From: Amphiscolops sp. MND2022
Taxonomy: Eukaryota
NCBI GenBank assembly: GCA_964187785.1
Contig: OZ076409.1
Coordinates: 15,874,001 to 15,938,000 of the forward strand
DNA length: 64,000 nt
Reading direction: 5' to 3'
The notes under the pieces were generated by a model that saw nothing but the letters and a program-made list of their open reading frames with translations, searched no databases and was not told where the DNA came from. The position numbers were made by a program, and so were the translations under genes. This document shows positions 1 through 48,417 of this stretch, piece after piece (positions within the stretch are counted from its first letter, which is position 1; each line of letters begins with the position of its first letter).

Positions 1-3000
1 GGAGACCCAGCCAGGCTGACTCCAGAGCTCGCAAGCTCGCTTCCATTTTGGGAAGCTGGCAATCTCCAGCTCCAAGCAATGTCCTTCCCACTCTGCGCGG
101 GCTTCGGGGCCTTGCACGGAATTGATCTCATCGTGCTGGACGATGGACATATCTCCTGACATCGTCATCTTGGCCTGCGGTCTCCAGACAGCTCTTCTAG
201 GGAACGGAGTCACGCGCCGTTGCAGGTTCCTTTGTCGAGTCTGAGCTGCTCCTTCAATCCAACTCGGAATCTGAGCCAATTCCATATACTGGACCTGCCG
301 ATTGAAGGCTTCAGGGGCGCGACCAACGGGTTTTGCTCTGGGCCATCCCAGTGGCTCCTTCCAGTAGTGATTTGGGAAGGTGATGCACTTGAAGGCGTAC
401 AGGGGATCTATAGGTGGACCAGCACTACTGCTGGTACGAATCACTTTACGTATAAACTCCTGCGTCCAAGGGAATCTAAAGGGGACTCCATTCAGGCTGA
501 GAGGCGCGGAGTACCAATTGACTGGGCCGTACTCTCGTGGCAAAGGGCACGCCTTTCGTGTGCGGGCGCGCAACAAACCCATCAAGTTCTCCTCCAGTTG
601 ATTCTCCGACTTCAAGGTGGTATACCCATGCGGCATCTCGCCACTCAATACAGCCTGTACGATGCGCGGATAGGTCAGTGGGGGGCGTCCTTGGAGATAG
701 GTGCAGAAGGAGACCATGTGCACCTGCACTGCTCTCGACAATGGTTTGGTGGGATACCGGCACACACCGACCGCACCGAAGATTGGGGCCAGGACGGAAG
801 CCATGACGGCCACGAAGTCCTCCACTTCGGCCAGAGTCAAATCGGCGATTTGCTGGGGCATAGGAAATCCCGCCGTTTCCGCAGGGAGTTGACGCTCGGA
901 ATTGTGCAGGGGTTGCGACTGATCCACGCCTACAAACAAGCCGGAGGCGAACACTAGGGTGGAATACAACCAATGTTGGAGGGATGCACGCATGCGTTCC
1001 AGCTGGGTGACATAATCTTGTTGGTCCTTGGAATTCAGGAGGTGACCCCATCGAGTTAGGCTGCGTAGCTGTCCCTGCGCGAGGATCAGGTAGCTGTAAA
1101 AGGTGACTAGATCACTGGATACTACCAGCTCGACTAACATAGCCAGAGGACCAGCCACAAACTTTGTCGGGCCCATGGTTAGCGCGAGCGCTAACATCTC
1201 CGACAGTGGTCTCGCCGATGGTTTCCAACAATTTGTCAGTCTGCACATTGGTGAGCAAGAACTCAGAGGCTATTACATCGATATTCCAGCCTAGTCCGAG
1301 ACTGGTGCAAAAGGCTTCCAAGGGACAGTTAAGCTCTTGAGCTACCTCGGCCAAGGTTCTGTCCACGAATCTGGACTGATACCATTCGGCATACGTTAAT
1401 CCGGCGGCATCTACTTCAGTCTTCAAGTTGGTCGCCTCCACAGCCACGATGTGCCTCAGGCCCACGGGCAACTTGACAGGCTCGATTCCCGCGGCAAACC
1501 GAATCTGAGGAATGGTCCTTTCGACCGTGCGTGCGGCAGGCCATGTTTCAATTTCCTTCACAAGCTCTGCCAGCTCTGTTCGTACGGGAATTTCTTTGTC
1601 TTTCCGCACCAGCCAGTTATATCGTCGAACAGCCTCTCGCTCACTCATGTTAGATTCTCGCGTGACGCGATTCCCGTCCAAGTCGAAGGCCATCCGCCCC
1701 ATGCACATTCCATGATCAAACAGTATGGCATCGTCGATAGTTAGTTGTGCATTTCCCGATCGCTCCACAGTGATTAGCACTCTTGATACAGCAGCAAAGA
1801 AGGCAGGGTATGACAATGCATCGGGGCGTAGGTCTCCGCGATCAACCCGAAGATTTGGCGCACATATGGCAAACTCGATCCAGCGCGCCTTGCACACCTC
1901 AGACAAGATATATACAAACTGCTGCAAGCTTCGTTGCCAATACATGAATCCCGGCGGGGATGTGAAGAGCGCGAGCGCTCCCAGACGACCCCGAAGGATC
2001 CCTGCTGCACGCTCCATTGCATCCGCAACCACGTTTACTAAGGTCGCCACATTCCCAGGTCTACGGGTATCTGCCATGAGGGCATCCAGGTTGTGTAGCA
2101 GTCCTTCACAGGCCATGTGGTCGATCAAGTTGGTGAAGACTACACGTCGCGGGGGTGGCTCTCTTAGAGACCCTCTCAGGTTTGGGTCGTACATGACCGC
2201 GACCATCTCTGCGACTTCGGCGAAGCGGGAGAGTGGCATTGTTAATACCAGCACATCAGGCAGAAGGTTATCGATAGGCAGATCGCTCTTGCACGTCGAA
2301 TCTACCGCCACACAATAGCGCGCACGCTGCAGAGCTGCTTTCAAGGGGGGTTCATTGACCTGATATTACGAGCGTAGCGGGCGTTCGCTTCCCAGGTTTC
2401 TCCTTCGCGCAATATGTACCTAGCGGGAAATTGCTCGGTGAGGTCGTGCTGCAGGCGAGCCATGTAGTTGTTGGGTGTGGCGGGCAGTTGCTCTCGAGCA
2501 CGCTGTTCCCAGGCTTGCTCACTCAGGTCCGCATCACGGGCACGTAGCGATCGAGTTATTTGTGCCGCAATGGTGATTCTGCTCACCTCTCTTTGATCGG
2601 CGTCCGACGGCGGTGCTCTTCTTCTAATCGCACATGTGTTTGGGTGCAAACACTCTGCTGCCATCCAGATGCGTTTACTATCGCTAGTTACCACGGAGCC
2701 GGATACATCATCTGACGGGGGAAGGAAGGCGGGAGGGCTGGTCTCCTCGACTGTCTCGGGCACCTCCAGGGACATGTTGGCAGAGCCTGTGCCCAAGGGC
2801 ACAGGACTCGTTTCAGGATTCGCATCCACACTGCCGTAGCGGTTGTTGGCCTCTTCCATAGACATTTGAGGCGCGCCTACGCCCAGGTGGCCGACGCGGT
2901 ATGGAGGCCTCACGACCACTACACTCTTCATTTGCGATTGCTGGGGTACATCTGCTCGCTTGTCCGGAGGGGGACGACTGGTCGGACTCTCGGTCACAGA

Positions 3001-3858
3001 ATTATTGCGCGTAGCGACGATGCTTTCCTCAGTAAGTCGCTTCCGTCCGGTTTCCTCACGGGGACATGTTATAGCGCTGGTGCTTGGTCCGGTCGTGGTG
3101 TCTGCTTCCATGGACACAGTTTCGGCTAGGGTGGTGGGTGGGGTGACACAGCCCGAGGATTGAGCTGCGGCTTGCAAATAGTGTGCCAATCCGGGAATCC
3201 TTTGTTCAACTGCACGGACGAAGTCAGAGGAGTTGGGGTAGTTGGCGACTGCTTGCAGGGCTACGATCACCGCTTGCTCGCTAGTGCTCCGTCCAGTAAG
3301 ATTCAGATTAGGCACTGATGGCAGTTGGGACCCCGAGGGCTCCCGACTTGAGGCTGATTGTTTGGCAGGGTTTTGCATTGTCGTTGCCTGGGTTCCATAT
3401 GGTGCCCCAAAAGCAAGTGAGCCAGCATACGGTGTCATCTGCACTGGATTCGGTGCCGAGATAGACGGCAGCGATGGGACATTGACGGGCATCATACGCA
3501 GTGATGCTTCTTGTTCGAATCTGGTGCCCTGACTGGGGCCATGCACTGCGATTGATCTTTCGTCTAAGAACTGGTGAGTCAGGTCGTACCCATCCCAGAC
3601 ATTATTGGTACACGTCAAGGTGCGACGATAGCCTGCCACCTCCGTAGTGATCGACAATGATGCGTTTGGCAGCGTTAGCATCGTTTCAAGCTGGGTCAGT
3701 AAGGCAGCTACCCCAGCAACGGCTACTGGTGAAAGACCATCCCGCAGCCTCTCTTCGACGTATTGGGCCTGATTGACCCTCTGCGCTCGCGCAGATTCCT
3801 GGGGCCTTGCACTACTAGGCCCTGTTGCAGGCGCTGAACTGTTTGGGCAATGGGCCAT
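1..3858 (-). pseudogene. Accessory ORF2 of the giant Gypsy (>1280 codons; low-complexity N-half, SGNH-like central domain, hydrophobic C-part), two 1-nt frameshifts
   Basis: ORFs 2341-3858 and 1112-2344 join across a C6 run (2345-2350). A second shift near 1200 leads to a frame I translated (EMLALALTMGPTKFVAGPLAML...) that stays open to base 1. Motifs VAVDS, RRVVFTNLID and DLRP resemble SGNH blocks I, III and V. Confidence 0.7.
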
Positions 3859-3870
3859 TAATGCATAGGT

Positions 3871-3890
3871 CTAAAAAGGACCACTGTTAG
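3871..3890 (-). promoter_or_regulatory. Putative branch point and 3' splice acceptor upstream of ORF2
   Basis: Minus strand reads CTAAC-AGTGGT-CCTTTTTAG|ACCTATGCATTA-ATG; the AG lies 12 nt before the ORF2 ATG at 3858. Confidence 0.45.
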
Positions 3891-4153
3891 GCTTACAGGG
3901 GCAAGTTCTTTCTGGAGCGAGCCGTGGGCTGGCTCGTCCCTCAATTACAGCGATGCAACATCGGCTCCGTAAGGGGGCCACTACAAACTTAAAATTTAAC
4001 TCTAACTAACTAACGAACTAGAACAAAACCTTTGAGTAAACAGCATGACAAATTAACATTTCGAGAGCATTTCAAGACTCTTCCATGGTTGTTACAAGGA
4101 TTATTACAAGGATTGAGGGCAAAGGGAAAATGGGGACAACTAAAATGATAAGG

Positions 4154-5360
4154 TTACTCCAGCCCTACATTTAATATTGATACATATACGCGGCTATGCA
4201 AAACCACGCGAATACCAGTTCCTTCGAACATGTTCGTTAGAGCATGGTACAAATTGACCAACGAGAAAGTCGGTCTCTCGGGGTCCAGAATGGGTAAGTG
4301 GACCCGTGTGGATCCTTTGTCTATCAGGCGCTGTATCAAGTGCGTCATGCAGCGCAAGTAGTCATCGGTCAGCAGCGGTGCGCGCTGGCTAGCACGGACT
4401 ATTAACAGGTGAATACTTTGATTAGGGTTGGGGTTCACATCAGGCGGGATAGTGAGAATCTCGCCCACTTTAGGTCGTAAGGCAAATACATCTTCTATGC
4501 CGCACTCCCGCAGCACATATCGCAAGGCGGCAGAGTTGGTCTTTAGGTCAGCAGGGCATGCTAACACTATGTCGCCCTCGGCCTGCAAAAAATCAGATTC
4601 ATCGTAAGAGACATGTTCGGCAGAATTCGGATACAGGGCTCCCGGGTAAACAATCTCTCGTCCGGGACCATTGTCGGAGGGCAGACACACGCGAGGCGTA
4701 CGCCCTTGGACTGCAGCCAGGTCTCGCCACACTGAGCGGGGCATCGCTCGATTGTCGCTGCCGGCCTTTACCCACGTATCTAAAGTTCCCAGAGCGGCTT
4801 TAGGGAACAGGGGGATCTCGAAAGTGTGAGTCCACTCATCTAACAGTCGAATTCTGGGATAGGTGGCGAAACACGTAATAATTAGTTCCAGCCACCATGC
4901 AAACTTCACCTTGCCTCGGTACCAGTCTATGATGTGAAAGCAAAGTATTAAGTCCACAGTGGTGAGGGTCCTCAGACTCTCTAGACAGGATAACAGATTC
5001 AACGGTTCCACCATTGCCTCCACTCGTGGAGCTGTTACCAGCAGCCACCAGTGAGGAGCCGGGCTGTATACCCCTCCTGGTTCCACCTGGACTCCATACT
5101 TATCGCATAACAAGTCGGCAGTGATGCATCGGGCCATTTGCACTGGTTCCCTTTCAAAATTGAATGGTCCAAACGCAATATTGTTGGGCACAGGGGGCAA
5201 CACCGTAGGCAGGGTAAACTCCAGGCCCTTTCCATCGCTAGTCCACTCCTTAAACCTAGGACAAGGGGCCTTCGCTACCCCAGGTAGTGACAACTTCTCC
5301 AGGATAGTGTCTACAGGGTGGTCTCCGGACCGCTCTACAGCTGAGTAGGTTTTCTCGGCC
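4154..5360 (-). CDS. C-terminal pol extension with two tandem TARG1/OARD1(DarG)-like macrodomains
   Basis: Domain 1 (~4838-5182): MARCITAD, LLVTAPR, NLLSCLESLR. Domain 2 (~4193-4615): VSYDESDFL, RPKVGEI, LLIVRA, GSTRVHLP, MFEGTGIRVVLH. Both parallel TARG1 LAHCISED / KSGEV / YLITKK / NLQKSLEAMK / GVTDLSMP / VFEATDIKITVY. The frame stays open upstream to ~5360, where a 1-nt shift joins it to the integrase ORF. Confidence 0.7.
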
Positions 5361-8153
5361 CTTCCGGAGGAACTCCCCGGGCTCCAATGGGAACCCTCCG
5401 GTTCTCATTCACAGCTAATAGGCAGACACAATCTCGCAGCCCGCAGGTTCCACATTTGTAGCGCGGCTGCCGTTTACTCCTTAATTGATACCTAAGAGCA
5501 GTTGCAGACGCCTCTGTTAGCGTCTCTGCAGTTCTAGGAGCTTCCGTTTCGGCCTGGATTGCAGTTTCGGTTTCGACATTTGTCGGTGTTTCTTTTTTCC
5601 TCGTCCTTGCTTTCGCTCGGATCAGCCGTTTCTTCTGTGCCTTGGGTGGTCTTCCCCTCCCCCTTTTGAAAGAAGGAGCGGTCCCCGCTCCTGGCGAAGT
5701 CTCGGGAACTTCAGGCAGATCGGGCTGAGCGTTGCTGACGCTGCTGGCAGACTTGAGAGGAATCGGAGGGGCGGTCGGCCATATGGGATAGTTACTAAGG
5801 AAATTGGTTAGCGAGGGGTTCGTTAACAAGGATGCCGAGGTTCCAGGCAACGATGTTTCTTTTTCGGAAGAGGATATCTGTGGAGACGGTGAGCGCACGC
5901 GCTCATGGTCAGAGAACAGTTGAGGTAGTACACGGGCGGGGGATATCGACTGATCCAACGCAGCCGGAGGAGCCGCAGGCTCCACTAGATCCTCGTCAAC
6001 TGGATTAGGAGGCATCGGCAACATAGCATCGGATAGTTCGTCATCTGTACCTGAGGTGGAATAGTCAAATTGCTGATAATGCGGGCGGGAGCCGCCTGCA
6101 CGAAGTTTCGTGCGTAGTCGAGTGTCCATCCAGTGACGTCGACGTGAGGGCAAAGATGCATCGGACGCCTCTGAAAGTAGTTGTTCAGGCTTATACGACG
6201 ATAAAGATCTATCGTCATCAACTACGTCGACGGAACGTTCAGGTTCGGGGTCCATAAGTACCACCACCTCACCACTGTCCGCGTGTGCAGTAGCAAGTTC
6301 AAGTGGGCCACTGTGGTGCGGTTTAAGACGCTCAAAATGAACCTTTTGACCTGTGTCTAGTACATAGACACGACCGTCCTGAAAGACTTGTACAACCTTG
6401 TGCGGGCCTCGCCAAGCACGCATCAATTTCGGGGAACCTTTTTGCGGCACGTAGCGGCAGAAAACCCAGACGAGCTCGCCCACTTGGTAAGCTCGCGCTT
6501 GTATAGCACGGTCGTACTTCAACTTTTGACGCAATTGGGCTTGGTGCGTATTACGCCGTACCAAGTCATGTATTTCTTGCTGGCGAGCCAACACATGATC
6601 GACATACGCGTCATGCGACTCGAATGAATTGGCTGCAAATTCGGGATACAAAAACGTGAGAGGAATGGCCTTCTCTACACCCCGGGTCAGCATGTAGGGT
6701 GAGAAGCCAGTGGTGGCGTGCCTCGTGGAGTTGTAAGCGCCCATGACCTCATCAAGACATTGGTCCCAGTCGCGCATACGGCGGGAGCAAAAAATTCGCA
6801 GTAGGGTTAATAATATCCGGTTTTGACGCTCCACCAAGCCTTGGGTTCTTGGATGGCCAGCCGTAGAAGTCACTTTGGTAACGTGGGCTGCTCTTAGGAA
6901 TTCATTGGATACCTCAGCAGTCAAATTTGGAGCATTGTCAGACTGCATTCGAGTAGGTGTGCCATGACGGGCGAACCACTTTTGCAGCAGCAACCGAGAG
7001 AGGTGGTCACAGCGTCGTAGTCGTGATGACTACAGGGAACTGCTTCCGCGAACTTGGAGAAATGGTCAATTATGACCAAGATGCCAGTGTTGTTACTGTC
7101 TGAGGGGCAGATCTTCAGGTGATCGTATTGGACTAATTCGTTGAAGTACCCACTCTGGATGTTCTTTAGGTGGAATCGGACGTCACCAGGCTTATCTCGA
7201 ACCTGTTGACAGGTGAGGCATTGGCCAACGTAACGGCCCACGCTGCGTCGAATACCAGGCCATGTGTGACGTTCTTGAATCCGAGCCACCACTTTGGAGA
7301 TGCCTTGATGTCCCATGGCGTCATGCGCACGGAATAAAATCTCATGCTGGTACAGTTGAGGCATGACGATCATGCACGGGCGTTCGTGCAGGGGACGTTG
7401 GTTGGGAGAGTATCGTACGCAAAGCACACCATTTTTGTTAATAAACAGGAGAGTTTTCTTCTGACGGTAGTAGTTGCGTGCGAACTCACGCACGTTCTCG
7501 GGAAACACGTCATGATCAATGGGTTCGTTTAGCACTAACTTTTTGAGTGCTAGCACATGAACATCACGGTTTTGGGCTAGGATCAAGTCTTTGATACCAT
7601 GCACGGTGTGAGCATGTTCGTGAAGTTCAGTGTCGATGTCTTTAAGAGCCATAATTGAGTCGCGTACACCCGAGGGAGTACCTTGCAACGCAACAGGATT
7701 CGCCCCGGCAACAGCATAGACGGTACGTGAAGGTACATTTACGGCATGCGTCGGCAATAGATAATCTTCGCGAGCTTCATCAGTGACATCAATCCAGTCC
7801 TCAGGGTAGTCTGGATAAGCATCCTCGTGCGGTTGCGGTGCAAGGGAAGGCGGAGGCGGCAAGGGTGCTGCGAATGCTTTCGCTTGTCTGTCCCTCCTGC
7901 TCGCTCGTTTGGTGCGGCGAAGCACGCGTAGCAATTGGTTGGGAGCCCTAGGCTCCAAGTTCTGCAGGTGCGCAGGTAGTTCGGGATGATTCGGGATGAC
8001 TCGACCCTGAAGGTCGAACCATGGGGCAACAGGTAGTTTATCAAATTCGTCAGCTGAAAGGAAATTCCAGCGTTCGCCCGCGGCTGGCTGCTGTGCAAGC
8101 TGTTTCTCTCGGCACCGGTACTCGTTAGTTCGTTTGCTCAAGCCATCGGCGTT
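5335..8153 (-). pseudogene. Integrase (HHCC, DDE core, GPY/F) with long C-terminal tail; frameshift near 6995
   Basis: HDAMGH...CLTC; YDHL, IIDHFSK, SDNAPN, GLVERQN; WRGPHKV, VHFERLK; an extra CT dinucleotide near 6995 splits ORFs 6921-8141 and 5335-6993. Confidence 0.95.
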
Positions 8154-10920
8154 TCAATGTTGAGTTCTTGGGCGATGTTCCACGCGAAAGTGATACTTCT
8201 CCAGGGTCATAATCCATCGGCCGATTAGCGCTTGATCCGTGGAGTACGTCTTCAACCAGGACAAGGCTTGGTTGTCCACCCGCAGGGTGAATTTCCGGGG
8301 ACATAAATAGCTGTGGTTTTTCACTATAAAATAGTAGGCGGCGAACATTTCGAGTTTGGGAGCTCCGTACTTAGCTTGTGTGGTAGTGAGCTTCTTGCTG
8401 CCGTAAACTATTGGCCTCAGGCGTCGTTCACCCGGAGGACCTTGCCACTGGTGCAGGATACCAGAAATGGCGACAGCGCTAGCGTCAGTGTCCAACACAA
8501 ACTCTCCCTCGGAATCAGGCTGCGCGAGCGCAGTCGCCTCGATCAGGGCTTTCTTGATTTCATTGAATGCGGTTTGTTGTTCAGGACCCCATGCGAAGGT
8601 GTCATTCAGTCCAGTGACGGCATGCAGGGGTGCAACCAGCTTAGCGTGCCAAGGGATGAATTCGCGATAGTAATTGGCGAATCCGAGGAAGCTCTGCATC
8701 TCCGTCTTGTTACGGGGAATTTCCCAATCGCGCAACTTGACGAAGGCTTTCGGGTCGGGCTTCACTCCTTCTGCGGAAACTACTCGTCCCAAGTACTTGA
8801 TCTCCGATTTCATGAAATCGCATTTGGCCACGCGCATTTTGAAACCGGCTTCACGGAGGCACTCAAAGACTTCACGTAGGCGTGCCATATGGTCCTCCAC
8901 AGTCTCTGTGGCAATCACGATATCATCAATGTAGGCCATGACCATGCTGCCCTCACGGTTGACAATATTCCGTAGCGCACGCGCTATTGATCGCTGGAAT
9001 GTGGCAGATGCATTGCACATACCAAATGGCATTCGCCGCCACTCAAAAAGCCCTAGTTCACAAGCAAAAGCGGTTTTGTGGCGATCCGCCTTTCGCACAG
9101 GAATTTGCCAAAAGGCCCAGGCAAGGTCTATGCTGGTATAAATCTTCGCCTTGCCCAGCCGTGCCAGGCTTTCATCAATACGGGGCAAGGGGTAGGCATC
9201 CTTAATGGTTACCTCGTTTAACGGGCGGAAGTCGCAGCAAAAGCGCAACTCCCCGTTTTTCTTTTTCACCATTACAATGCCGCTCGCCCAAGGGGACAGC
9301 GAGGGCTGTATCATTCCCAGAGCTAAGAGGTTCCGCACCTCCTGATTGGCACGTTCGGCCTTCTCAGGGGACATCCGGCGAGCACCTTCGCGATGTGGTA
9401 CAGCCCCTGGTTCCACCTCTACGGTATGCTTTGCGATAGTGCACCGACCGATGTCAGCCTTGTGCTTCATGAATAGCTCATCGAATTCATCGAGGAGATT
9501 TTTGAGAGACTCGCAGGCACTAGCGCCCCATAAATCCTTAACCGCCTGCAACTGAGATTCTGGCCCAGGAATCGGAGCCATTAGCTCTGGGTCTGTACGC
9601 TTGCGAATTTCGCGCTCCGATAGTCCTGCCTCGCTAGGGTCAGTTGAGGACAAAAACTCAAACTCTGAAGAAGAGGTTAACTCAGAAGCAGTGGACAGAT
9701 TCACTTCACTATAAATTTTATGAACAAAATTTGCACGACTGTCGTCGGCGTTAGTCTTTGTGCGGGTTGTCGTGGGAGGGTCCAGACACTGAGGTACTGC
9801 TTGGTATACTACCGTTACGGGTACTACGGTGCCCAGTTGTACACCACACCGCATGCGTTGAGGGTTGCTGGTGAGATTTATCAGGCTCACAAAGAGTGTC
9901 CCTGTCTCACTGACAGTGGCCACGCTGTCCTCTAAAAAGACGACATTATGCAACGTAGTGTCAGACAAAGAGGCATTGAGCGCTACGCTTTGAAAAATCA
10001 GCGGCTCTAGTGCATTGGTGACGAGCTTAGCTCTAGCCACCGCACGCTCGAAAGGTTGCAGAACCAAGTCACTATCCAAAACGACTGGGGTAGCTATCGA
10101 AGTGTCACCTACCTGTGCGTGAGCATGATGCCACACAGGCTTCACTGGTGCTCGCACCACAATCTTCATAGATGTTAGATCCACTAACACCTGGTAGGAG
10201 CGGAGAAAGTTCCGACCAAGTAGGAAGTCTTCCACACCCATTGCGTCATCTACCACCACAAAGTTCGTTTCAAGCTCATATCCTCCCAGCTGGAAATGGA
10301 TATGTTCTGCGAGGCCGTAGGTCTTTATCGTCTTCCCGTTGGCTGCGTACAGGTCAACTTGGTAGGGTTTAAGGACCGTTCCAGTTCGAGCTGACACTCT
10401 GTTAAAGGCGGAAAACGTCAGTATGGAGACGCCCGAGCCAGTGTCCACCAATCCTCGCAGCGGGATAGGTGCTGCATGAGGCACCACGAAGGAGACCACG
10501 AGCGACGCACGCTCATCTATACGCGCTTCACCAGTAGGTTCCTGATGATTGATGTTATAGCATTTGAGCTCCTGGGGACCCAGACAAATGCCAGGGGGAA
10601 ACACATCCACCACCACACAGGCTTCAAACTTCAAATCCACTCCATCCATTGAAGCACAGACTGGCACTGGGGAGTATGTCGTCAGAGTCGTAGACTCTCC
10701 CGGAGCGTACCATTCTTTCGGTCGAGGCAACTCGTTTCGTTTGTAGAGGACAGACAGTTCGACCCACAGCTACGCCAGGGTTAGCGTCGGTCTACGCGTT
10801 TGCTCAGCTGCCAGCAACAGGTGAATTGAAATCAGCGTCCGTCCTTGCGGGTCGAACGTCGTAGGCTCCAAGCAGGTCTGAACTTGCTTAGCACCACAAG
10901 TGAATGTCATCGGAGTGTGG
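8154..10920 (-). pseudogene. pol: Pol: protease-like repeat, aspartic protease, reverse transcriptase and RNase H
   Basis: LVDTGSG (Asp codon 10443-10445), LLGRNFL; RT PWASG, RFCCDFRPLN, YPLPRID, MPFG, YIDD (8922-8933); RNase H TDAS, DNQAL; in-frame stops TAG 10770 and TGA 8154 (H*NADGLS). Confidence 0.96.
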
Positions 10921-11195
10921 AACGCAGGCGGTTCCGCCGGATGCAGCATCAACACACGGTCATCTTCCAAAGGTACGGTGTGCGCGGCGATGCCAGCTGA
11001 TTCTACCTCAGCCCATCGGTTGTAGGCTAACTCGTCACTGGGCTTCGGCGCGTGGGAGTGCTCACCACATTGCACTTCCGCCTGATCAAAAAGTCCACAG
11101 CTCGTGCACTGATAGATCCCCGGATGACATTCAAGAATGCCATCAGTCGCGTCTTCCGTGGTGACATTTACGCCCTCTGGTTCGGAGGCAGTCAC

Positions 11196-13540
11196 TGGTT
11201 TTCGGGCTTGGTCGCGGTTGGGGCATTCGCGAGCAAAATGTCCGTTTTGCCCACAGTGAAAACAAGCACCTGCCGGCGCTCGGGCGGGAGCTAGGACAGC
11301 GGGAGCTGGGGCATTTGGGGGGGGGGCGCCGGAGGTGGCAAGACGCCCTGCGGCATGACCATCTTATTCGGCGGCAGTGGTACGAAGGGATGAGGTCTAG
11401 ACCTCATAGCTAGTCTGGGATCATAGGTTTGTTGAGGTTGGGTGGGTCTGGGACGATTTCGTTGCAGCTGACGCGTGGTGAATCGCAAGGACTCTACGGT
11501 AGGGGGTTCGGTAAGAAAAGTCTCCGAGGCGTATACTATGGCAAGTTCACGCCTCAATACTGGATCTCGCACACCTTCCATGAAGCGCTGCAAGATTTCA
11601 TAGCGCTTGGTAATGATACTTTCTTGCGGGAATCCTTGGCTCCTGAGACCCTCTAAAGCGTCTAAGTACTGCATCCAGTCCTCTTTTTCTTGTTGGACGC
11701 GGCTTTGGAAAGTCTGCCGCACCTGCATACGATTTCCTCCCGCGCCAAATCGGCTAGATAGCAATTCGAATACCTTCTCGGGGGTGTCACGTTCAGACTG
11801 AGCCTTGTTGATGATGTAGTTGCGAGCCTCACCCTCGAGATGACCAATAATGCTCCAGGCCCGATCTTCGGCCGAGACTTTGGTTTGGACTCTTTTCAAG
11901 TATCGCTGCATCACCAAGATCCAGCCATCAATAGACCCGTCCTTAGAGCCGCGATACACACTGGGTTTGGTTTGAGCCAGGTCACGTCCCGCAAGCAATG
12001 GTGCTAGTTCTTTGGACATCGCTTTGGAAATGGCGGCAGTGAATCTCAGCTGCTCGGGAGAGATGACCTCAGCCTCTCCTTCCTTGGGTGCCACTTCGTC
12101 GGTACCGTCGTCACTGCCATGTGTGGCTCGTACTGAGAGGTCCGCTATGTCTTCTTTCTAGCGAGTGCTACTCGCACAAGGAGCGCCCGAGGGCATTCCG
12201 TCCTCGGCTGTCCAGTCGGCGGTCAGATACAGGGAGTCCGTTCCAGAAGCCATGGTAGGGGCCGTCGCATACGCAGCTCCATCAGTCTGGGACCCTAGTG
12301 TGGCCTTGGTACAGGATAAATCAACTTCAGTAGAAGAATCTAGATAGATAGGTGACATTGGGTCCACACCTTGGTCTCGGGTGGTACTTCGAACTACGGA
12401 GGAGGTTATTTGACTCATCGAAGAGGAGTCGTGGGGCCCTCTCACCTGCACCCGTGCAGGTTTACGCTCCACATCAGCCATGATGAGTACGGGGTCCCTG
12501 ATTCGGGTTTCAGGCGCCGTCGACTTGGAAGTGCCAGGCTTCAATGCACTCGCCAGCTCGGGTTTCGTTGCCCGACCCAGGTGCGACGATTCCGGAATCT
12601 TAGTTGAATCCGCGACTGGTACACCTTCACCGGCACCAGATTGTCGTGGGAGGGACCTCTCGCGCCTCATGATGTTGATAGCGTTGAGCACAGTGTGCAT
12701 TTGGTTACTGAAATCATTGATCTGGGTTTCCACACGAAGTTCACGGGCCATTAAAAGGTCATTCATCTCACCCATTCTGTGGCCTAGTGCATCCACGCGA
12801 GCGCTCTGCGTATTCTGCGCGGTTCGCAGTTGATCACTGACCTGCAATCCTTCTCGCATCGTTGTCTGCAACGTTCTCAAATTTTCTGCGATGGCACGAT
12901 GTTGATCATTGCACCCAGCACGAGTGCTGGCCAGTTCAGCTAAGGCACGTTGGGTCTCAGCTTGGGCGTCCAATATTGCGGCTTTATACACCGAAGATCG
13001 TTGGGATGACGCCACTGAACCTGCCACGCTCCTCGTACGAGGCGCCTCAAACTGATGTTCACCTACATTCATCATGGGTGGTCGCACTCTCTTGTGTTTG
13101 CCATAGGCACAAACTCGAGTGCTACCTCGAGTGACTCCAGACCCCTGCGGTCTCGCATAACTCGTGTTCCCCGTGTAGGTAAGATCTTCGTCCACCATGA
13201 TCTGTAGGCGGGAGCTCGTCTTCTCTCCCAGGGGTGCGCGAGAGCACCCTTCCTCAGCTGCAGGTTCGTTGGTCATGTTTGAGTTGGGCCACTCCTCTTC
13301 TGCTTCATTGGTTCTTTCACGGCAGGTTTCATCGACCCATTGCTCGGTTCGACGAGAGCTTCCAGATGCAACGGAACCCTCAGAGGGAGGGACCATGGCG
13401 GCCAACTCCTCTTTGCGTTGTTGCTCGATAGTGACTTCGTCAGACATTTCGTCTGAAAAATGCGAACTGTCCATTGTGGATCCCATAGTCACCCATGACC
13501 GCGAACTCATGTCAAGCCTTTCCAGGCCTGGTAGGACCAT
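11196..13540 (-). pseudogene. gag: Gag (long N-terminal region with predicted coiled coil, capsid-like domain, CCHC zinc knuckle)
   Basis: ORFs 12158-13774 and 11291-12094 share a frame across one TAG; capsid-like HLEGEARNY...FQSRVQQEKE; after a shift in the G10 run at 11317-11326 comes CFHCGQNGHFAREC (~11222-11264). Confidence 0.88.
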
Positions 13541-14760
13541 TACGTACGATACCAATAGCAGAGCAAGTGTCAACAACTCGGGCGCCGCCTTTAATGAGAT
13601 CTCGAAGGACGCGGGATTTGTCGAGTCGCTGTTAGCTCTAGGCTCGTCTCGGTGTGGACTTAAGAAAATTACTGCTTCACAATGTCCCAAATTTCTCGAA
13701 ATGCGTTTTAAGGCTCGTAGGCTGCTCAAATTCGCACAGCGCTTTCCCACCAGCACACTGGGCCAGAAAATCAACCTGGTTTGGGGCCAAAAGTCTCCAG
13801 TCGTTTACAGGAAGAATTTCAAAGAATTTTTGGGTTTTCCGAAAATCGCGCAGCAACACTCAAGAGGCTCGTGTGTGCACTGGAAACGCCGTATCAAGCT
13901 CTAAATTGACCAGCGGATCTTAGGTACACGTAGGTTTGCGACAGTGAACACAGTTTTGAGCTGCGCCCCTTCTACACAATTTCACCTAGGTACAGACGTG
14001 CGGTACCACTATGTACCCAAATACGCTGTTTTTCACGTCTTTTTCAAGATTGCGGTACACTGGAAAAAGCTAGTAAGCTCAAATTTTCTGCAGCAACGCA
14101 GGAACTAGCACAGGTTACAATGGTGGGCTGCAGTATAACCCCACCCGCCAGCTAAGGTGCCCGGGTTACTCGGAAAAATTAAGAAAAAACTGCCTTTTTG
14201 CACACCTTTTTGGGTGCCACGTTTTTCCTATTTTCTCAACAAGTATCACACAGATCGGCACTAAACTTAGTAGTTTATGCCAGTGGGCACCTACAATGCC
14301 ACTGATATGGTCGAATTGAAGCGCAAGCGCTTATTTGAGGTTTCGACCCGGTCTGGACGTTACACACGAAAAAATACTGTTTTTGACTACTTTTTTCACA
14401 AATTGACCAAGAGGATCACCTCAGAAAGTGATACGGCGGGCAAAATGGGACCAACGTGTTGCCCCACTATCCGTAGCACTGGGATAAACCCTCAATTGGT
14501 TATGCCCGTTAGATATAAGGCACTGACAGTCCTGCAGTTTTGGATTTTTTTGGTCCTTTTACGCTTCTCTGAGGTCGAAACGTCAGAGAGCTTTTCTCGA
14601 CTTTGGTGAACGACACGCCCACCAAATTTTCGGCACTAACGTTAATTTTTGTGGTGGTTACGAAAATGCAACCACTCTTTGGCTAGGGTTCAGGAATCGA
14701 TGACCCGACCCTAACTCAGAGACAGTCCGATTTTGTGGAAAATTGATCAAATTCAGTGCG

Positions 14761-15032
14761 TTTTTCCACTTTTCTCAGCACTGAAAAGGAATTTTGCACG
14801 CGGTTTTCACCACAATGCGTTATTTTTACTATAAAAACAGAAAATGAGAGCACGAAAGCTCCTGGCTAACAAAAAGACAGAGTGCCCAGGGGGTTTTTAT
14901 TGTGTGCTCGGACACTCCTGAAACTAACTAAAATTCAAGGTTTTTCAACTTTTCTCGACGCTAAAAGAGAATTTTTGCACGCGGTTTTCACCACAATGCG
15001 CTACCTTTATTGCAAAAACAGAAAATAAGAGC
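14761..15032. repeat. ~90-bp direct repeat pair in the retrotransposon leader
   Basis: 14761-14851 and 14941-15032 share TTTTGCACGCGGTTTTCACCACAATGCG and flanking AAAAACAGAAAAT-AGAGC. Confidence 0.85.
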
Positions 15033-16211
15033 GTTCAGACTCGCTCTGTTCCACTAAGCTTCGCTCTCAAGACTTTCAGACAATGCACTTTCTATGCCTG
15101 AAAACGCCTCAAATTACAGGTTTTTTGCACCGTGTCAGCCCCAGGCTGCCTGAATCCGCTGCAAAAGTTGCAGTTAGTGTCCTGCGGGATTGCTACGCTT
15201 GAAAAAACACCGTACACTGCTTTTTCACACTTCTACACAAGTGTACGCCTGTGTTTTTGGGTGCCTTTTTGGTCAAAATTCCATTTTTTTTTGCAATTTT
15301 CTGGTGCTAAATCGGCACTTTTATCACAACCAAAGGCAAAACTGCTGCCTTCTGTGCCTCGCACCAGCTTTCTCGAGCCTTGCAGCTGCTTTTTGCAACA
15401 CTTTTCACAAAGTTTTCCTGGTTCCGCTGAGCACAAGTGCTCAAAACCACGAAAAACACCAAAAAAAGGCAAAATTAGGGTTTTCTCACGCAAGTGCTAT
15501 CTTTTTTGCAGAAAAGCACTTCGTAGGGTGTCGTTACATCTACAACAAAACATTACTGACCTGCACCAACGATTCCCCGTCGAAAAAGGTGCATTTTCAA
15601 AATTTTCACCGACCATGAGCCATTTGAGCGACGCGTCCGGTCACAGGGGGTGCATCTTCACCACGCTTTTTCTCCACATCCAGACCAGATAGAGACACGC
15701 GGTTTGGACCATTAGCATCGTCTGCAATTGCACTTGCTGTCCACCAAAAATCATACCTCTAGGACGTCTCCACGAGAAATGGGAGTAGAAAGTAGGCAAC
15801 ACACAATTTGACTTCCCCTTCGCCTCGCTGGTTCACGGTCAGCCATCTACCAGTTACCTTCTTGCATGGCATAAAATGGCTGAAAATAGCTTGCAAAACC
15901 TGTTAAACACCCGTAGCCACGTGCTACGGTCTTCTGCACCTGCAAAAAGATACCCGCTGATGGGCACACAACACATCACACAAAAATACCGATTTCCTTC
16001 CAAAACACCTAAAAATGCCATTTTCGCACCTGAAAATGTGATTTTTTCGGGTTTTCTCTGGTTCAACGCCTCTCCCAGTTCCAGTAGAATGTCGCACGAC
16101 TAAAAAAAGGTAAAACTCTGCTTCTCTCTCCTTTTCCAGAGTCGAAACGGGCTTGGCGCTGATCACCAGGCCAGATCTTTTAAAAACCGCTCGGGAAAGC
16201 TTCCCAAGACG

Positions 16212-16229
16212 ATCCCTCTGTGGTCGCCA
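16212..16229 (-). other. Primer-binding site, tRNA-Arg-like
   Basis: Minus strand TGGCGACCACAGAGGGA, near-complementary to the ...TCCCTTCGTGGTCGCCA 3' end of metazoan tRNA-Arg(TCG) as I recall it. Confidence 0.75.
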
Positions 16230-16244
16230 AAAAATGAGTTTCTA

Positions 16245-16957
16245 TGTAACGATAAGCGCTGGCGCTTGAACCGCAACGTAGAGTGGAGGAACTAGAACAG
16301 CGAATATAATCTGGGACTTAGATCTCCGCGGCCCTAGCTCATTTTCCCTCCGAAGGAGCCAGTCCCAAGGTGGGGGAACCGTCTTGTTGGAAACTCTCTG
16401 GCCTGGTCCTAGTCTGTAACTGCTAAAAGTAACGGGCATCTTGCATGTCTCAAGACCACTGCTCAATTAGCCTTTAAAAAGGGGGCTGAAAACAGGAGAA
16501 TGTTGAGCCATAGTATTGGAGAATCTGATAAAATCGACATCAAAATGGGTAACTATAGATGTTAAATGGGCAGCTCTCGAGCATATCAATCTACTACAAT
16601 AAAGAAAGCACAACAAGCATAATAATATCAGAAGTTTGAGTTATTTGACAGGAATCGACCATGGCTTCCCAGCGCTAGCGCTCGTCACCGCACAGGACAC
16701 CGCAGGATCTTCAGGCGAGCATCCGGAACACATCCGGAACTACCAATGTAGTGTTAATTCCGAAGATGGGCACATCACCGTGTTCTAGAGACTGATTTCT
16801 ACGTCTTTTTTGTCGTCTCCTTTCGCGGGGGGGGGCGATTTCTGCTTTTCTGATATGCTTTTCTGACAGGTCTTTCGTCTTGAGCATGTTTGAGTGCCAC
16901 GTCAGATTTGAACGAATTTTTGCTTCGAAAATTTTGACATGGGCAGTTGCCGTTACA
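16245..16957 (-). repeat. 5' LTR of the giant Gypsy (713 bp)
   Basis: Terminal inverted repeat TGTAACG...CGTTACA; adjacent PBS; homologous LTR at 27704-28415. Confidence 0.85.
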
Positions 16958-27469: not shown

Positions 27470-28415
27470 AAATGCCAGTATCACACCTGAAAAAGGGCTT
27501 TTTCCGGGTTCCTCTGCGTCCATTTCATTCCAACTCCCAAGAATACATGCTGTCGTTAAAAAAGAAGCAAAACTCCGTCTCTTCTTTCTTCCGCAGAGTC
27601 AAAACTGTCTTGGCGCTGGACACCGGTGGGCTAGATCTTTTAAAAACCATGCAGGAAAGCTTCCGAAGACGATCCTTCTGTGGTCGCCAAAAATGAGTTT
27701 CCATGTAACTGCAAGCGGTAAGCGATTGTGGCGTGACAATAGAATGGAGGAACTGGTACCATGGATACGGTCCGGGGCAAACCACCATGACACCAGCTCA
27801 TTTTAGCCTCCTAAGGGTTGGCAGTCCCGAGGAGGGCGAACAGTCTTAATGGATTCTCTCTGGCCTGATACCAGTCTGCAACTGCTAAGAATCACGGGAA
27901 TTGCATTGGGACTTGCAACCAAGATAGCTCATAAAAACTGCTTGTTTGTTGACAACTGAATTTCCTCCAGTGGGAATTTCTTCATAGGTCAATGCAAAGA
28001 ATGATAAAGTAACAATAGCTCTCGAGCATATTTCAATCTAAATACAAAATACAACACACAAATTAAGATAATTGAGTCCAGTTTGGCAAAAACTGTAGAA
28101 GTTGTGCCGATTTGGCACCAGCGCTCAAGCTGGGCACAACCCCGAGCACGGGCTGACTCTTTAAACTGTCATCGGAACTGTGGGTTCGGCACTTTACAAT
28201 ACAGGATTCCGCGGGCCAACACCGTGGTGTTTGCAAGTTTTTAGCTCGTTTCTGCCTTCTGTTCTCCCGGTCGTCTCGCTCTCTCTCGCGGGCGCCTTTT
28301 TTGACTTTTTTCTACGCTTTCTGACAGGTACATCGTCAAAAACATGCTCACGTCAGATTTGAACGAAACTTTCAAAAATTGTCAAAATTTCGTCTCATTA
28401 CAGGATGCCGTTACA
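27470..28415 (-). mobile_element. Truncated sibling of the giant Gypsy: 712-bp LTR (27704-28415), PBS and start of leader
   Basis: TGTAAC...GTTACA; PBS TGGCGACCACAGAAGGA; blocks shared with 16020-16957 (CTCTCTGGCCTG, AGCTCTCGAGCATAT, CACGTCAGATTTGAACGAA, AGATCTTTTAAAAACC); left limit uncertain. Confidence 0.85.
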
Positions 28416-32919: not shown

Positions 32920-35900
32920 TCAAGAAGAAATTTGTCTGTGGTAATGAGTTTTTTTGACATTTGAGTCATTTTTCGATCTTTTTTTCTGAAACAACATCAG
33001 AAACTGTCTTCGAAAGTGACTGCTGGCCAGCACATAGGAGAAGAAGTTCAAGGAGTTGTTGCAGCATGACAAAACACCCTGGAAAACCAACAAAATAATA
33101 GAAGCTACAAAAGCAATCTAGGGTTCGTTTTTAAATCAAAAATTCGAGTTTCAAAAAAAGAGAAGGAACAAAATTCACAAAAGCATGCAAATAAGTGTAT
33201 TTTATTTAGCTTACAAATGGGTACTACTAAGGGTGAATTTTTCATAGTTTACCGCAATCTCGAAACGAAAAACTTTCCACATTCCACCAATCCTCTCTTT
33301 ACCTTTTTTTAAAATTTTTAGTTGGAGTAATACGTTTTTGGACCGTAAAGGGACATTCAAGCTGTTCGATACTATACGATTTTTTTCGAAAACAAATCAC
33401 CCATCAGATGTTTCTTTCTTTTCAGTCAGAGAATAGGGTTTTTCGAGCAGGTAATGCTTTTCTTTAGAATTTTTCGGCACCTTCAATTTTGTGTTGTTCT
33501 TTAAAATCTTCGCGCTTTTTGAGCCTCAACCAAGGCATCAACTTGAAACGCCCTCGTCTTGTTTCAAATGTCGATTGATGTCATATGTCAAAAACTTGTT
33601 TTGTTTCATCGATGTTCCAGAAAATGAACACCAGAAAAAATTAAGACTCAATTTCAGGATATGACAACAAAATCGGAAAACTTATTGCACTTTCAAATTT
33701 CTACGCCGCCGACATTTTCCAAATAGTGTTTTTTTTCTGAAAAACGTTTTCCAACTTGAATACTATCGAGACTTACAGCGAAAACATTCAGCAATTTGTT
33801 GAAGAGATATTGGCGATAGGTTTCGATTTTAACCCCTGCTGTTGTGATGAGAACACTGCCTATTCCCAAGTTCATCACCAAGAAACATATTGAGACAAGA
33901 ACTAAAGAGATTGTAATCTCTCGCTCCTTACGGCTCACTTTTCCTTCCATTCTTCTCAGCTTGTACACTATCAAAATATTTGATGTCAGGATGCTCAGAA
34001 ACGGAACCCCGATTAGCCCTACCAACACAATCCATATCACATAGGCATGTCTCTGTTTCTCAGTCAAAATATCTTCTCCTATCATGGAACACTCATCTTC
34101 ATGGAGATCGTAGATTGTGAGAACAGGTATGCACACGAAAGCACTGACGCATTCCACGAGAATGGTTGTTCCTACTGCAATGCTGGATTTACCGTACATT
34201 TTGTAGTTGACAGGTACCCAAAGAGCCAACACGCGATCAATTGTCAGAAATGCGAGTATGTAGTTTGCTGCAAAGTACATAACGAGTTTATGATGGCATC
34301 GAACAGGCTTCATGGTGGATACTATGTTTTGAAACAGAAAATGCTTCATCAAATTATACAAAGCCTAAAGTACGTAAACTACCATAAGAAAGGAGGTTTT
34401 TTTTGAGAGATGAATCATTGACAATGTACTAAACTAATATGTGTAGACTTTTGTGAAAATATTTATACAACCTAGTGGTTGTTGAGCTTGCTTCTCTGGT
34501 TAAACCATTAACAAAACTTTACCTGCTGCTCTCTACAAATAAGTGGTTTTGAACTTTGCAACACAGTGAGTCGATACTTTTTTCGAACTTTTTCTGACAA
34601 ACTTTTCACTGAGCAGCTTAAGTTAAAGTAATAACGAAATATTCAATGAATCATTGTTTAATTTGACCGTATTTACAATGTGGTGGTATGAATTGGAATG
34701 AAAATAAACACTGGATAGTGAATGAATATAAACATGGTGTATGTTAGTCAAACTTTGACCTCATTCCACCCACAGCAAATTGAGGATCGCTATGCTTGCA
34801 ATAAGTTGATGTTAATCAAAATTTTGTTTGAATCACGGAAAAGTGCATTTTTGGACAAAGTCCTTTTTTTCACTAACTACGCGCCTTGACTAGTTTACAC
34901 TATTTTTCTTACGCTAAAAGAAAACAAAACAATAGGTTACATTTCACAATGAAATAAACGTTACTATGGGACCTTTTTGTCTATTGGAAACACTTTTTTG
35001 AAGATCAATATACATAAAGGTTGAAAAACACTACAACATCTTTCAACGGATGTATCAAATCATTGGAGTCATAAAGATTCTGGGTTCGCATGAGTGCCCT
35101 GGTTGAAAGAAAATGCGTTCCTTGCAAGGATCTTGCAAGATCCTTGTAAAAATGCAATCACTTGTAAGATCTTGCAAGGAAATTTGTTCGTTGCAAGATC
35201 TTGCCAGGAAATTTGTTTCTTGCAAGATCTTGCAAGGTAATTTTTTCCTTCCAAGATTTTTCAGAAATGTTGATAACTTGCATGATTTTCCAAAAAACAC
35301 GGAACCATGGAAGTGTAAAGAACAAAAAACAAAAATTCTAAATTGTCAAAGTTTCAAACTGTTTCAAACATGTATAAATTTGGTTGTCAAGAGCTATTTT
35401 CAAGACATTTTTTTGTTTCAGTTTTCGAACTTTTTTGCCCACTCCCACTTTTTTTATTCACAAAAAATGACACAAAGTTTCTCTCGCAGATAAAAAATCT
35501 GGTTGAACACTTATTTCTGTAAAATATTGCAAACTGTTTTAATATGAGATAGTTTTAAGTTGCTAAATTTCAAATTCGTATCCTGATACCTGTACTTTCG
35601 AAAAACCTAGTTTTACAACTCAATTTGGCCGAAATTTTACAATGATTCCAGAAATCAAACAAACCAGAGGCTTCAATACATTCAGGGGATAGACTGAACA
35701 TGAATTAGCTCAAAACCATTGAGCACCAAAGTGACCACGAAAAGTGAGAAACACCTCAATTTTGAACCAAATTTGGCTGAAAATGTCCTTTGAGAACTAA
35801 ATTGTAAACTAGATTGTAAGCTAGATAAAAGTCTAAGAAACTTTAATTTTTTACAAGACATCAAAATCCGTGCCGTTTGCCTGATGTTGCTTCTTCTGGA

Positions 35901-42489: not shown

Positions 42490-42695
42490 TGTAGAGGTGA
42501 AAATTATATAGTCTAGACAGACTTAATTGAACATTCAAGTACCTGCCTATGAACTATAAAGTACATCCCCACCATTTAGTTATTGCCTTCGATGCTATAC
42601 GGATAGATACTGATACTCTAGTACTGCATACTATTGAGAACGTTATCTTCTTAATTTGAACTTCTTAATTCTATCTTTTCCACGAGTCTACAACA
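42490..42695 (+). repeat. 5' LTR (206 bp)
   Basis: TGTAGAGG...CTACAACA, repeated at 48212. Confidence 0.97.
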
Positions 42696-42717
42696 TGGCG
42701 CAGTCAGCAATTTGAAC

Positions 42718-45700
42718 ATGCTGGAAATCAACAACACCGAAATCAACAACACCGACCCCAACCCAATGGAAGGTGAACCGATGACATCGGAACAGTCAAC
42801 GAGAACAATAAACAACCAAACAATGGCCGAGAGAACCGAAAAAAGTAAGTACAAGATCCCAATCTTATCAGACAGAGACACCGATCTCACCAAGATTAAT
42901 CCCAAGATGTGGTGGGAGCAAATATCGGAATATATCCATTTGACTTACGACCGAAATCTAGACGAGATTACCGAAGAGGGGATCGAGTACATGGACCAAC
43001 ATACAGCTTACCACATAAAAGGCGACGTTATCTGGGCACTGGGCCCAAAGGCCAAGCATGAAATTATGAGAGGTCAATGGGGCCGAGAGTTAAAAGATGT
43101 CAAATTACCAGAACTTCTGACATTATTCAAAAAAACCTTCCTCCCAGCGAGAAATGTATTCCACAGCAGGGCACAATTTTTCAACATGAAACAGGAGGAA
43201 AACGAGACCCTGGATGAATATTGGAAAAGGCTGGTGGACATCGAAAGAAAGTGTGATTTCAACAACGTCACACCGGAAGAAATCATCACATACAAGTTCG
43301 CAGCCACCATAAAGGACAAAAGAGCCCGTGATAAATTCATAAAAGGCCCACTGAAAATACAATTGGTATTGGAAACCATAGAAATAGACAACTACAACAG
43401 AAAATACGGGGACAAAAAACCCAAAATCAAAAAAGCCAAAAGAGAATCCACAAGCAGTTCAACATCGTCTGAACAAGTCGGCCATACTAATCAACTACGG
43501 AAGCGAAAAACACATTTCAACGAGAAACGAAAAATTTCAAACAAAAATTGCCGCTCCTGCGGGAAACCAAACTGGTCTATGGAACACGTTTGCCCAGCAC
43601 GGAGATCACAATGCAACAATTGCAAAAAGATGGGGCACTTTGCCAAAGTCTGCAAATCTAAGACCGTCAGCCGGATAACCGAAGCAGTCTCCTCGGGCAG
43701 CAACACCGAACCATGGCCAGAAATTGACCACATCCAGTCCGTCAACGGCATTAATCGAGTGGATTTCTACAAAACAATCCTATTGGTCCAAGGACAACCA
43801 ATAGAATTCATTATTGACACAGGCTCTCCAGTGACGATAATCCCGCCAATTATCAACCCAAAAGAAGTCAAAGCGACCTCAAAATATTTCGTTGATGTAA
43901 ACAAAAATCCAATCAAATTCCAAGGGGAAGCGATGGTAGAAGTCAAAACGGAAAAAACAAAAACAGTACTACCCATCCTAATTACGGAAAAGAAAAACAC
44001 ACAACCCCTTCTGGGATTGGACTGGCTAGACAAGCTGGAAATCGGATTACAAGGAAATCTGGAAACAAATATCATCCGAAACATAACTGCAAGCGAAAAA
44101 GGTGAGAAAATTTTCAAAGAATTTGAAAACCTTTTTAAAAACAACCACACAATAAAAGACCTGACAATAGACATTCAGTTGAAAAAAGACACAAAACCTA
44201 TTCAACAAAAGGGGAGACCGGTGCCCATACACTTCCAAAACATCGTAAAAAACGAGTTAAAAAAATTAATTGAAAAAGGACACCTGGAAAAAGCCGATAA
44301 AACGACCGAAAATTGCTTCGTCTCACCCGCGGTTATAACGATCAAAAAAGATAAATCAGTAAAAATCGCACTAGATTCAAGGAAACTAAACGAATCTTGC
44401 ATAAAAAGAAAGGCAACAATGCCAAACATGGTAGAACTAATCAGCACAATATCCGCAAAAATCACAAAAAACAATGGCGAGATATGGATGTCCAAAATCG
44501 ACCTAGATTATGCATATGGACAGGCAAAACTATCCCCAGAAGCGTCACGGCACTGCGTGTTTTCAATTATCGGCGGTGATTTTACCGGACTCTACCGATT
44601 TAAAAAGGGATTTTACGGACTATCGGATATTCCCACCGTGTTTCAAGAACACATCGATAAAGTCCTAGAATTCAAAACACCAGTCTGGCTAGATGACATC
44701 ATTTGTGTCACCAACGGAACAATAGAGGAACACGAAGAAGAGTTACGTGAAATACTGTCGAAACTACAAGAAAACGGTTACCGAGCGAGCGAGAAAAAAA
44801 CAAAATTGTTTAAAAAAGAACTAACCTGGTTGGGATACGAATAAACCAAAACGGGGTAAAACCAATTAAAGATAAAACAGAAGCGATAACGAAATTGAAA
44901 GCACCCACAAACACCAAGGAATTGAAATCATTTCTGGGCTCGATACAACACTTATCAAAATTTTTGAATAATCTATCCAAAAAAACAGACAGAATGAGAA
45001 GATTGCTGAAAAAAGATACAAAATGGGAATGGACAAAAGAAATAAATGACGATTTCGAACAATTAAAAAAGGAAATAACGGAAACACCATGCTTAGCACA
45101 CTTTGATCCAAAAAAAGAGAATTTCAAAACAACTGATGCTTGTAATACCGGACTAGGGGCTACCCTATGGCAGAAAGAGGATGAAAACTTCAGGCCAATA
45201 GCCTTTGCCAGCAGATTTCTCACTGATTGTGAAAGAAAATACGCCATAAACGAACTCGAATTATTAGGCGTCCTATGGGGCGTCGAATATTTCAGGTATT
45301 ACGTATACGGAAAAAAAATAAACCTTCTGACCGATCACCAAGCGTTACAACCATTATTAAAGCGCAATCGAGCCCATAAACAATACAGTGCAAGACTCAC
45401 ACGGTGGTTAGACCGTCTGAGCCATTTCAATGTGAATGTGCAATACACCGCAGGCAAGAACATTCCACTAACGGACTATCTAAGCCGACATCCGATACTC
45501 ACTGAACACCAAGCGGAAACATCATGCGAGAACGAAGAAAAAGAAGCCGAAGAGGAATTCGTAATAAATCAGATATACGGCCTATTCGAGTTTGATCGCA
45601 CGAACGGTAGTATTACGCAACACATCCAACGACAGCAATCGGCAACAAAATCCGACCAATCACATCGCACAAAACAAACACGTGAACAAACCAACAACAG

Positions 45701-48065: not shown

Positions 48066-48211
48066 CAACTTTCGAATATTCTAGATCCAAAGCCAAAAAG
48101 CCAGAAGAAGATCGTACACTTCATCCGGAACATAGCCAACAAACAGAAGGCCGGAAACAAGAACGCCTGAGACATTCAAGAATGGCTCCCATAATCCCGA
48201 AGAGGGGGGAA

Positions 48212-48417
48212 TGTAGAGGTGAAAATTATATAGTCTAGACAGACTTAATTGAACATTCAAGTACCTGCCTATGAACTATAAAGTACATCCCCACCATTTA
48301 GTTATTGCCTTCGATGCTATACGGATAGATACTGATACTCTAGTACTCCATACTATTGAGAACGTTATCTTCTTAATTTGAACTTCTTAATTCTATCTTT
48401 TCCACGAGTCTACAACA
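48212..48417 (+). repeat. 3' LTR (206 bp)
   Basis: Matches 42490-42695; preceded by the PPT, followed by the TSD. Confidence 0.97.

Follow-up and report, generated by a model that had tools for sequence, protein, structure and literature searches.

In a 64,000-nucleotide stretch of DNA from Amphiscolops sp. MND2022 (assembly GCA_964187785.1, 1.07 Gb; contig OZ076409.1, positions 15,874,001 to 15,938,000 of the forward strand), hereafter the window, positions 1–16957 form the larger part of one minus-strand long terminal repeat (LTR) retrotransposon. Downstream of its gag-pol, this element carries an additional open reading frame, ORF3, which is a conserved accessory gene of an LTR-retrotransposon clade. 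Although ORF3 occupies the env position, its sequence features support the view that it does not encode an envelope. Its central domain is predicted to adopt the SGNH fold and, judged from the model, is most readily interpreted as a pseudo-esterase in which the Ser/Asn side of the pocket is kept and an arginine gained.

Organization of ORF3

ORF3 is ~4.3 kb long and multi-domain. It begins with an ATG at position 3858 on the minus strand, and a non-coding spacer of 295 nt (3859..4153, minus strand) separates it from pol. An initial annotation described a huge ORF in env position, and its placement downstream of pol, in the same sense and running off the window start, is correct. However, ORF3 of the window copy is split by two frameshifts into three frames (3870–2341, 2365–1112, and 1269 to beyond the window), and a single frame occurs only elsewhere. 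Nine of 20 fetched sister copies hold one ORF3 frame of at least 1,400 codons, and 11, together with the window copy, have no full-length frame; copies with a broken ORF3 also have a broken pol. The pol-spacer-ORF3 junction is complete in 40/40 scored matches, which indicates that ORF3 belongs to the element and is not a nested insertion. Moreover, a pyrimidine-rich AG lies 12 nt upstream of the ATG, and an acceptor-like site was found there in 7/7 copies examined; from its sequence, it is possibly a splice acceptor.

Residue numbers follow P0001, the 1,423-residue ORF3 product of the natural copy L022, and all ORF3 coordinates are on the minus strand. An N-terminal domain (residues ~25–125, 3484..3786) is recognized by sequence conservation, with 30–38 of ~100 residues identical between families. 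It is followed by a Pro/Ser/Thr-rich linker (residues ~126–400, 2659..3483) that varies between families. Residues ~400–510 are again conserved; contrary to the initial description, not all of the first ~500 residues are low-complexity. Next come the predicted SGNH-fold domain (residues ~511–730, 1670..2329) and domain B (residues ~785–1135, 457..1507), which spans a frameshift in the window copy. The all-helical core of domain B, up to residue ~975, was modelled at a predicted local distance difference test (pLDDT) score >90, and structure comparison of this model gave no match. Based on the model, the fold of domain B may be new. The family-specific C-terminal part (1..456) runs ~410 nt past the window start.

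Although an extra ORF downstream of pol is commonly labelled env from its position, ORF3 does not fit that label. By hydropathy, the only measure used for signal peptides, the first 40 residues score at most −0.45 in 4/5 full-length ORF3 sequences and 0.85 in the fifth; the initially described frame has no hydrophobic N-terminus, the best 19-residue value in this region being −0.54. A furin-like site is not conserved, as the sole RXXR lies at the very C-terminal end and is missing in P0023. There is no C-terminal transmembrane anchor, and the C-terminus is hydrophilic. No viral fusogen fold appeared among the listed structure matches, with parts of ORF3 lacking a confident model. Hydropathy thus agrees with the initial view that no signal peptide is evident and that the product is not an envelope. 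In contrast, the hydrophobic stretches that had been assigned to the ~400+ C-terminal residues reduce to one moderately hydrophobic, Pro-containing segment in domain B, near residues 1016–1034 (760–816).

Predicted SGNH-fold domain and its catalytic positions

The motifs VAVDS, VLTMP, RRVVFTNLID, LFTSPP, and DLRP, from which an SGNH-like domain had been proposed, are all present in the translation. When the AlphaFold model was compared with 48,161 chains by VIA-align, SGNH/GDSL proteins, including the OSK domain of Oskar, filled nearly all of the 50 highest-ranked rows, and the model forms an alpha/beta sandwich matching SGNH structures. Structure prediction therefore bears out the proposed fold. 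A profile comparison with eight canonical SGNH domains of the same genome was not significant; it picked the same block I–II register.

Blocks were assigned with the block table of PMC10792757. D520-S521 (2302–2297), N577 (2131–2129), D580 (2122–2120), and R678 (1828–1826) are invariant in 6/6 very diverse sequences. In block I, GDS corresponds to V-D520-S521-T, in a register set by motif and spacing and not by a confident model. D520-S521 is present in 9/9 rows of alignment A5 and 6/6 of A9, and S521 in 10/11 rows of A6 and 35/39 covering rows of A4. In block II, FPGARV of the ZfL2-1 esterase corresponds to M-P-L-S-R-F; the Gly is replaced by Leu, Cys, His, or Phe in 13/13 covering A6 rows and is found only in P0177 and P0181. 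In block III, HVGTND corresponds to V-F-T-N577-L-I-D580, with the Gly absent and two registers possible. The block III candidate N577 occurs in 15/15 A6 rows and 49/51 covering A4 rows, and D580 is assigned as a pocket residue.

In block V, DxxH corresponds to G-D-L-R678-P, and the DxxH pattern is lost. R678 is present in 17/17 A6 rows and in 45 covering A4 rows. The acid position is variable, and both the His and the acid are absent in all rows; the Asp of DLRP is neither at the catalytic acid position nor conserved. When positions are counted back from the C-termini of four structural alignments, on the assumption that the last helix holds no gap, the catalytic His of 5a4a and 4h08 falls exactly on R678; for 1yzf and 1vjg it falls no more than two residues away. 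The replacement of the block V His by Arg, as suspected initially, is thereby upheld in this inferred register. H581 is not universal; P0177 has Asp and P0153 has Tyr at this position. In addition, the domain is not net basic.

SGNH domains were also seen in other elements. Members of another gypsy lineage of the Amphiscolops genome (L068–L075 and L079) have an SGNH domain directly behind the integrase, with the GDS, GTND, and DGIH motifs all intact; in L074, L075, and L079 the two are in frame. In the LINE-like L076, L077, and L080, an SGNH esterase ORF lies upstream of an endonuclease-type ORF.

Distribution and selection

A protein search of the genome with the ORF3 core gave 3,271 candidate places, which are not copy numbers; the 121 that were scored are all 95–100% identical. 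Database searches returned relatives at 81, 54, and 44% identity and 434 cluster representatives at E ≤0.001. The 44% family and a family at ~30% proved likewise abundant when the Amphiscolops genome itself was searched. In fetched stretches of four deep families, an ORF3 frame of 1,364–1,535 codons directly follows a long gag-pol; these ORF3 products are 24–40% identical to P0001, and their reverse transcriptases (RTs) are 82–98% identical. P0177 (1,187 residues, 23% identical) has the same domain order as P0001. Since P0100, P0131, and P0153, from ENA records, have best matches of at most 37% in the Amphiscolops genome, their sequences suggest that the gene probably exists in other hosts. 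Another relative, P0151, is recorded as a hypothetical protein from a metagenome bin assigned to Bacteroidota; its 816-base contig is likely host DNA in the bin.

To assess selection, pairwise ratios of nonsynonymous to synonymous substitution (dN/dS) were calculated on nine pairs of natural copies, seven of which had measurable dS in the SGNH part. In 6/7 pairs the SGNH ratio is 0.03–0.08; three of these six pairs have sequences in common and are not independent of each other. The remaining pair, very young and with 13 changes, gives 0.49. Domain B gives 0.05–0.12 in the same six pairs and 0.29 in the seventh, and the linker 0.11–0.25, with 1.06 in the very young pair. For comparison, the C-terminal Pol tail gives 0.07–0.13 in 5/6 measurable pairs and 0.28 in one, and RT 0.005–0.024 in three pairs. 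These low ratios indicate that the frame is coding and constrained, and purifying selection, on which the initial proposal depended, is evident. Moreover, the ORF3 frame persists across families with saturated synonymous sites. Collectively, selection as strong as that on the Pol tail across saturated families indicates that ORF3 does something the element needs.

Possible functions of ORF3

We tentatively favor, at somewhat less than even probability, a reading in which ORF3 encodes a non-catalytic, ligand-binding adaptor that tethers the particles or RNA of the element to intracellular membranes during transposition. The protein would be translated from its own, probably spliced mRNA and would be cytoplasmic. 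The SGNH pocket, with Arg in place of the His base, would hold, without turnover, an anionic group, for example a phosphate or the head of a phospholipid or fatty acid. Domain B, with its one hydrophobic kinked helix, might serve as a scaffold or shallow membrane anchor. The benefit would fall mainly in cis, because ORF3 and the Pol tail are under equally strong selection. This reading rests on the position after pol, the retention in all families seen, the purifying selection, and the lack of envelope hallmarks. It also leans by analogy on the ZfL2-1 esterase, whose liposome binding persisted after active-site mutation (PMC3905857). The net charge weighs against it, since the ORF3 domain is not net basic, unlike that of ZfL2-1.

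A possible but doubtful alternative is an Oskar-like RNA-binding scaffold or silencing suppressor, in which the N-terminal domain, the disordered linker, and the dead SGNH domain bind element RNA or host small-RNA factors, so that RNA is localized to germ plasm or shielded from silencing. OSK does appear among the top structure matches, but it ties there with dozens of active esterases, and it has lost the Ser that the ORF3 domain keeps. The domain charge is again unfavorable, and in many lineages one would expect a freely shared suppressor to have decayed.

It is unlikely that ORF3 is still an enzyme of unusual chemistry, slow on acyl or acetyl esters, with the Ser521 nucleophile activated by Arg678, His581, or the substrate. 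Such activity would be in keeping with the widespread retention of Ser521 and Asn577, with the block II Gly of the distant P0177, and with the finding that only about half of SGNH structures have the full signature (PMC10792757). However, the block V His and acid are missing throughout, His581 is no universal stand-in, and loss of the His abolished hydrolysis in the ZfL2-1 esterase (PMC3905857). A non-canonical envelope or movement protein taking particles between cells is less probable still. The env position and the acceptor-like site would suit it, as would the hydrophobic segment, kept in 5/5 full-length sequences, and Drosophila elements do spread envelope-independently (10.1101/2025.03.14.642691). 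The signal peptide, conserved furin-like site, and C-terminal anchor are nevertheless lacking, the segment contains one to three prolines, and the protein known from envelope-independent spread is a short transmembrane peptide. Finally, the reading of ORF3 as a neutral passenger, a nested insertion, or a frame open by chance, to which the frame losses in the window copy and 11 sisters might point, is refuted by dN/dS far below 1, conservation between families with saturated synonymous sites, the 40 intact junctions, and the joint decay of pol in frame-broken copies.

The carrier element and the rest of the window

The 5' LTR (16245..16957, minus strand) is 713 bp long with TG..CA ends. Its partner lies ~1.2–1.9 kb past the window start (L021 7610–8320) and is 97.9% identical, which indicates a young element of ~18.85 kb. 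A primer-binding-site-like motif (16220..16229, minus strand), a putative primer-binding site, is separated from the LTR end by 16 nt in each family read; this gap is longer than usual. The gag-pol region (4154..13804, minus strand) encodes a PNMA-like Gag, a CCHC knuckle (CX2CX4HX4C; Pfam zf-CCHC, E 6e-7), an aspartic protease, RT, and RNase H, as well as integrase. It is one long frame in intact copies and is broken by stops and frameshifts in the window copy. The Pfam order protease-RT-RNase H-integrase and the flanking of gag and pol by LTRs with TG..CA ends are as in Ty3/gypsy elements. Between protease and RT, a segment at ~9900–10100 (minus strand) without a Pfam match may be dUTPase-like, judging from its sequence pattern.

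The C-terminal Pol tail (4154..5335, minus strand) comprises ~390 residues, is kept in all families, and is conserved in 9/9 rows. It may contain one, probably two, macrodomain-like units, and we treat this as a lead. The cue comes from Atlas (0.90–0.92) and from PF01661 on 14% of one cluster; the two halves align weakly (E 0.005), and searches for Pfam and PDB sequence matches returned none.

Across all families, an exact 3-bp target duplication flanks 28 of the 32 copies whose two ends were both seen (4/4, 12/14 in the window's family, and 12/14 in others); copies without both ends seen were excluded (2/5, 2/16, and 2/16). One of the two misses in other families matched when looked at again. 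Duplications of 4, 5, or 6 bp were found in 0/28 copies checked (14 of the window's family and 14 of others), and all copies read have TG..CA termini. The clade thus departs from the 4–6-bp duplication usual for Ty3/gypsy and LTR elements in general, 3 bp being described as unique to Troyka (Kojima 2025, PMC12440569). Troyka shares the 3-bp duplication and the single Gag-Pol frame. However, its termini are CG..CG, its knuckle is CX2CX8-10HX4C, its LTRs measure 100–400 bp against 710–735 bp in the clade, and its internal part is <7.7 kb against ~17 kb (PMC12440569). Membership in Troyka was rejected, as termini, knuckle, and size all disagree. A 3-bp duplication with ordinary termini goes against the 4–6-bp rule, and standard LTR finders would miss such elements.

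A broader proposal is that this is an undescribed giant LTR clade that integrates with a geometry of its own, the 3-bp duplication with TG..CA ends, whose integrase has a macrodomain tail, and for which a 1,400-residue accessory protein is obligatory; this protein, combining a pseudo-esterase pocket with a new helical fold, would act as a new envelope substitute or trafficking factor and explain the clade's takeover of a gigabase genome. We consider this whole combination rather doubtful.

Elsewhere in the window, a second, A-rich LTR element (42490–48420, plus strand) has 209-nt direct repeats, 99% identical, and gag, protease, RT, and RNase H, as well as integrase, in shifted frames. A rhodopsin-family G-protein-coupled receptor fragment (33693–34364, minus strand; 7tm_1, E 1e-9), repeated at ~18700 and ~49460, sits in a duplication of ~15-kb period. 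A diverged remnant at 27629–27901 resembles the LTR end and leader of the ORF3 element, at 80–89% over short stretches.

Comparison with known systems

Among the closest precedents are the Vesta/Juno LTR retrotransposons of bdelloid rotifers (Rodriguez et al. 2017, PMC5408684), in which an SGNH-fold ORF3 after pol replaces env and lacks transmembrane or env features. However, that ORF3 is ~1.3 kb, has all catalytic residues intact, is low in copy, and is under no clear selection in the available part of that account, whereas the clade ORF3 is 4.3 kb, multi-domain, His-to-Arg substituted, high in copy, and under strong purifying selection. Catalytically deficient GDSL derivatives occur in Athena-L Penelope-like elements (PMC5408684).

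The ZfL2-1 non-LTR ORF1p esterase (Schneider et al. 2013, PMC3905857) is likewise a compact SGNH domain within an accessory protein of a retroelement, with similar block I–II spacing and block II pattern (GDSIV/FPGARV/HVGTND, Table 2, PMC10792757); the two showed no significant sequence or profile match. Unlike the ORF3 domain, it is active and basic, forms a coiled-coil dimer, and precedes the RT gene (PMC3905857). OSK of Drosophila Oskar (PDB 5a4a) has a similar fold at 7% identity, but belongs to a host gene, has also lost the Ser, and has no domain B. The giant gypsy element Burro of planarians is similarly very large and very abundant, with extra domains; these are apoptosis and ubiquitin domains, with an env-like region inside the polyprotein, and the available portion of its description mentions no SGNH ORF3 (PMC6431247).

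In the literature outside Repbase, subscription journals, and supplements, we found no account of a disabled, multi-domain SGNH ORF3. An SGNH ORF3 in LTR elements is already known; its disabled, multi-domain form appears to be new. A dead enzyme fold carried by a mobile element uncouples binding from catalysis and is a natural experiment on the idea that the esterases of retroelements function in membrane targeting. It also parallels the origin of the OSK domain of Oskar.
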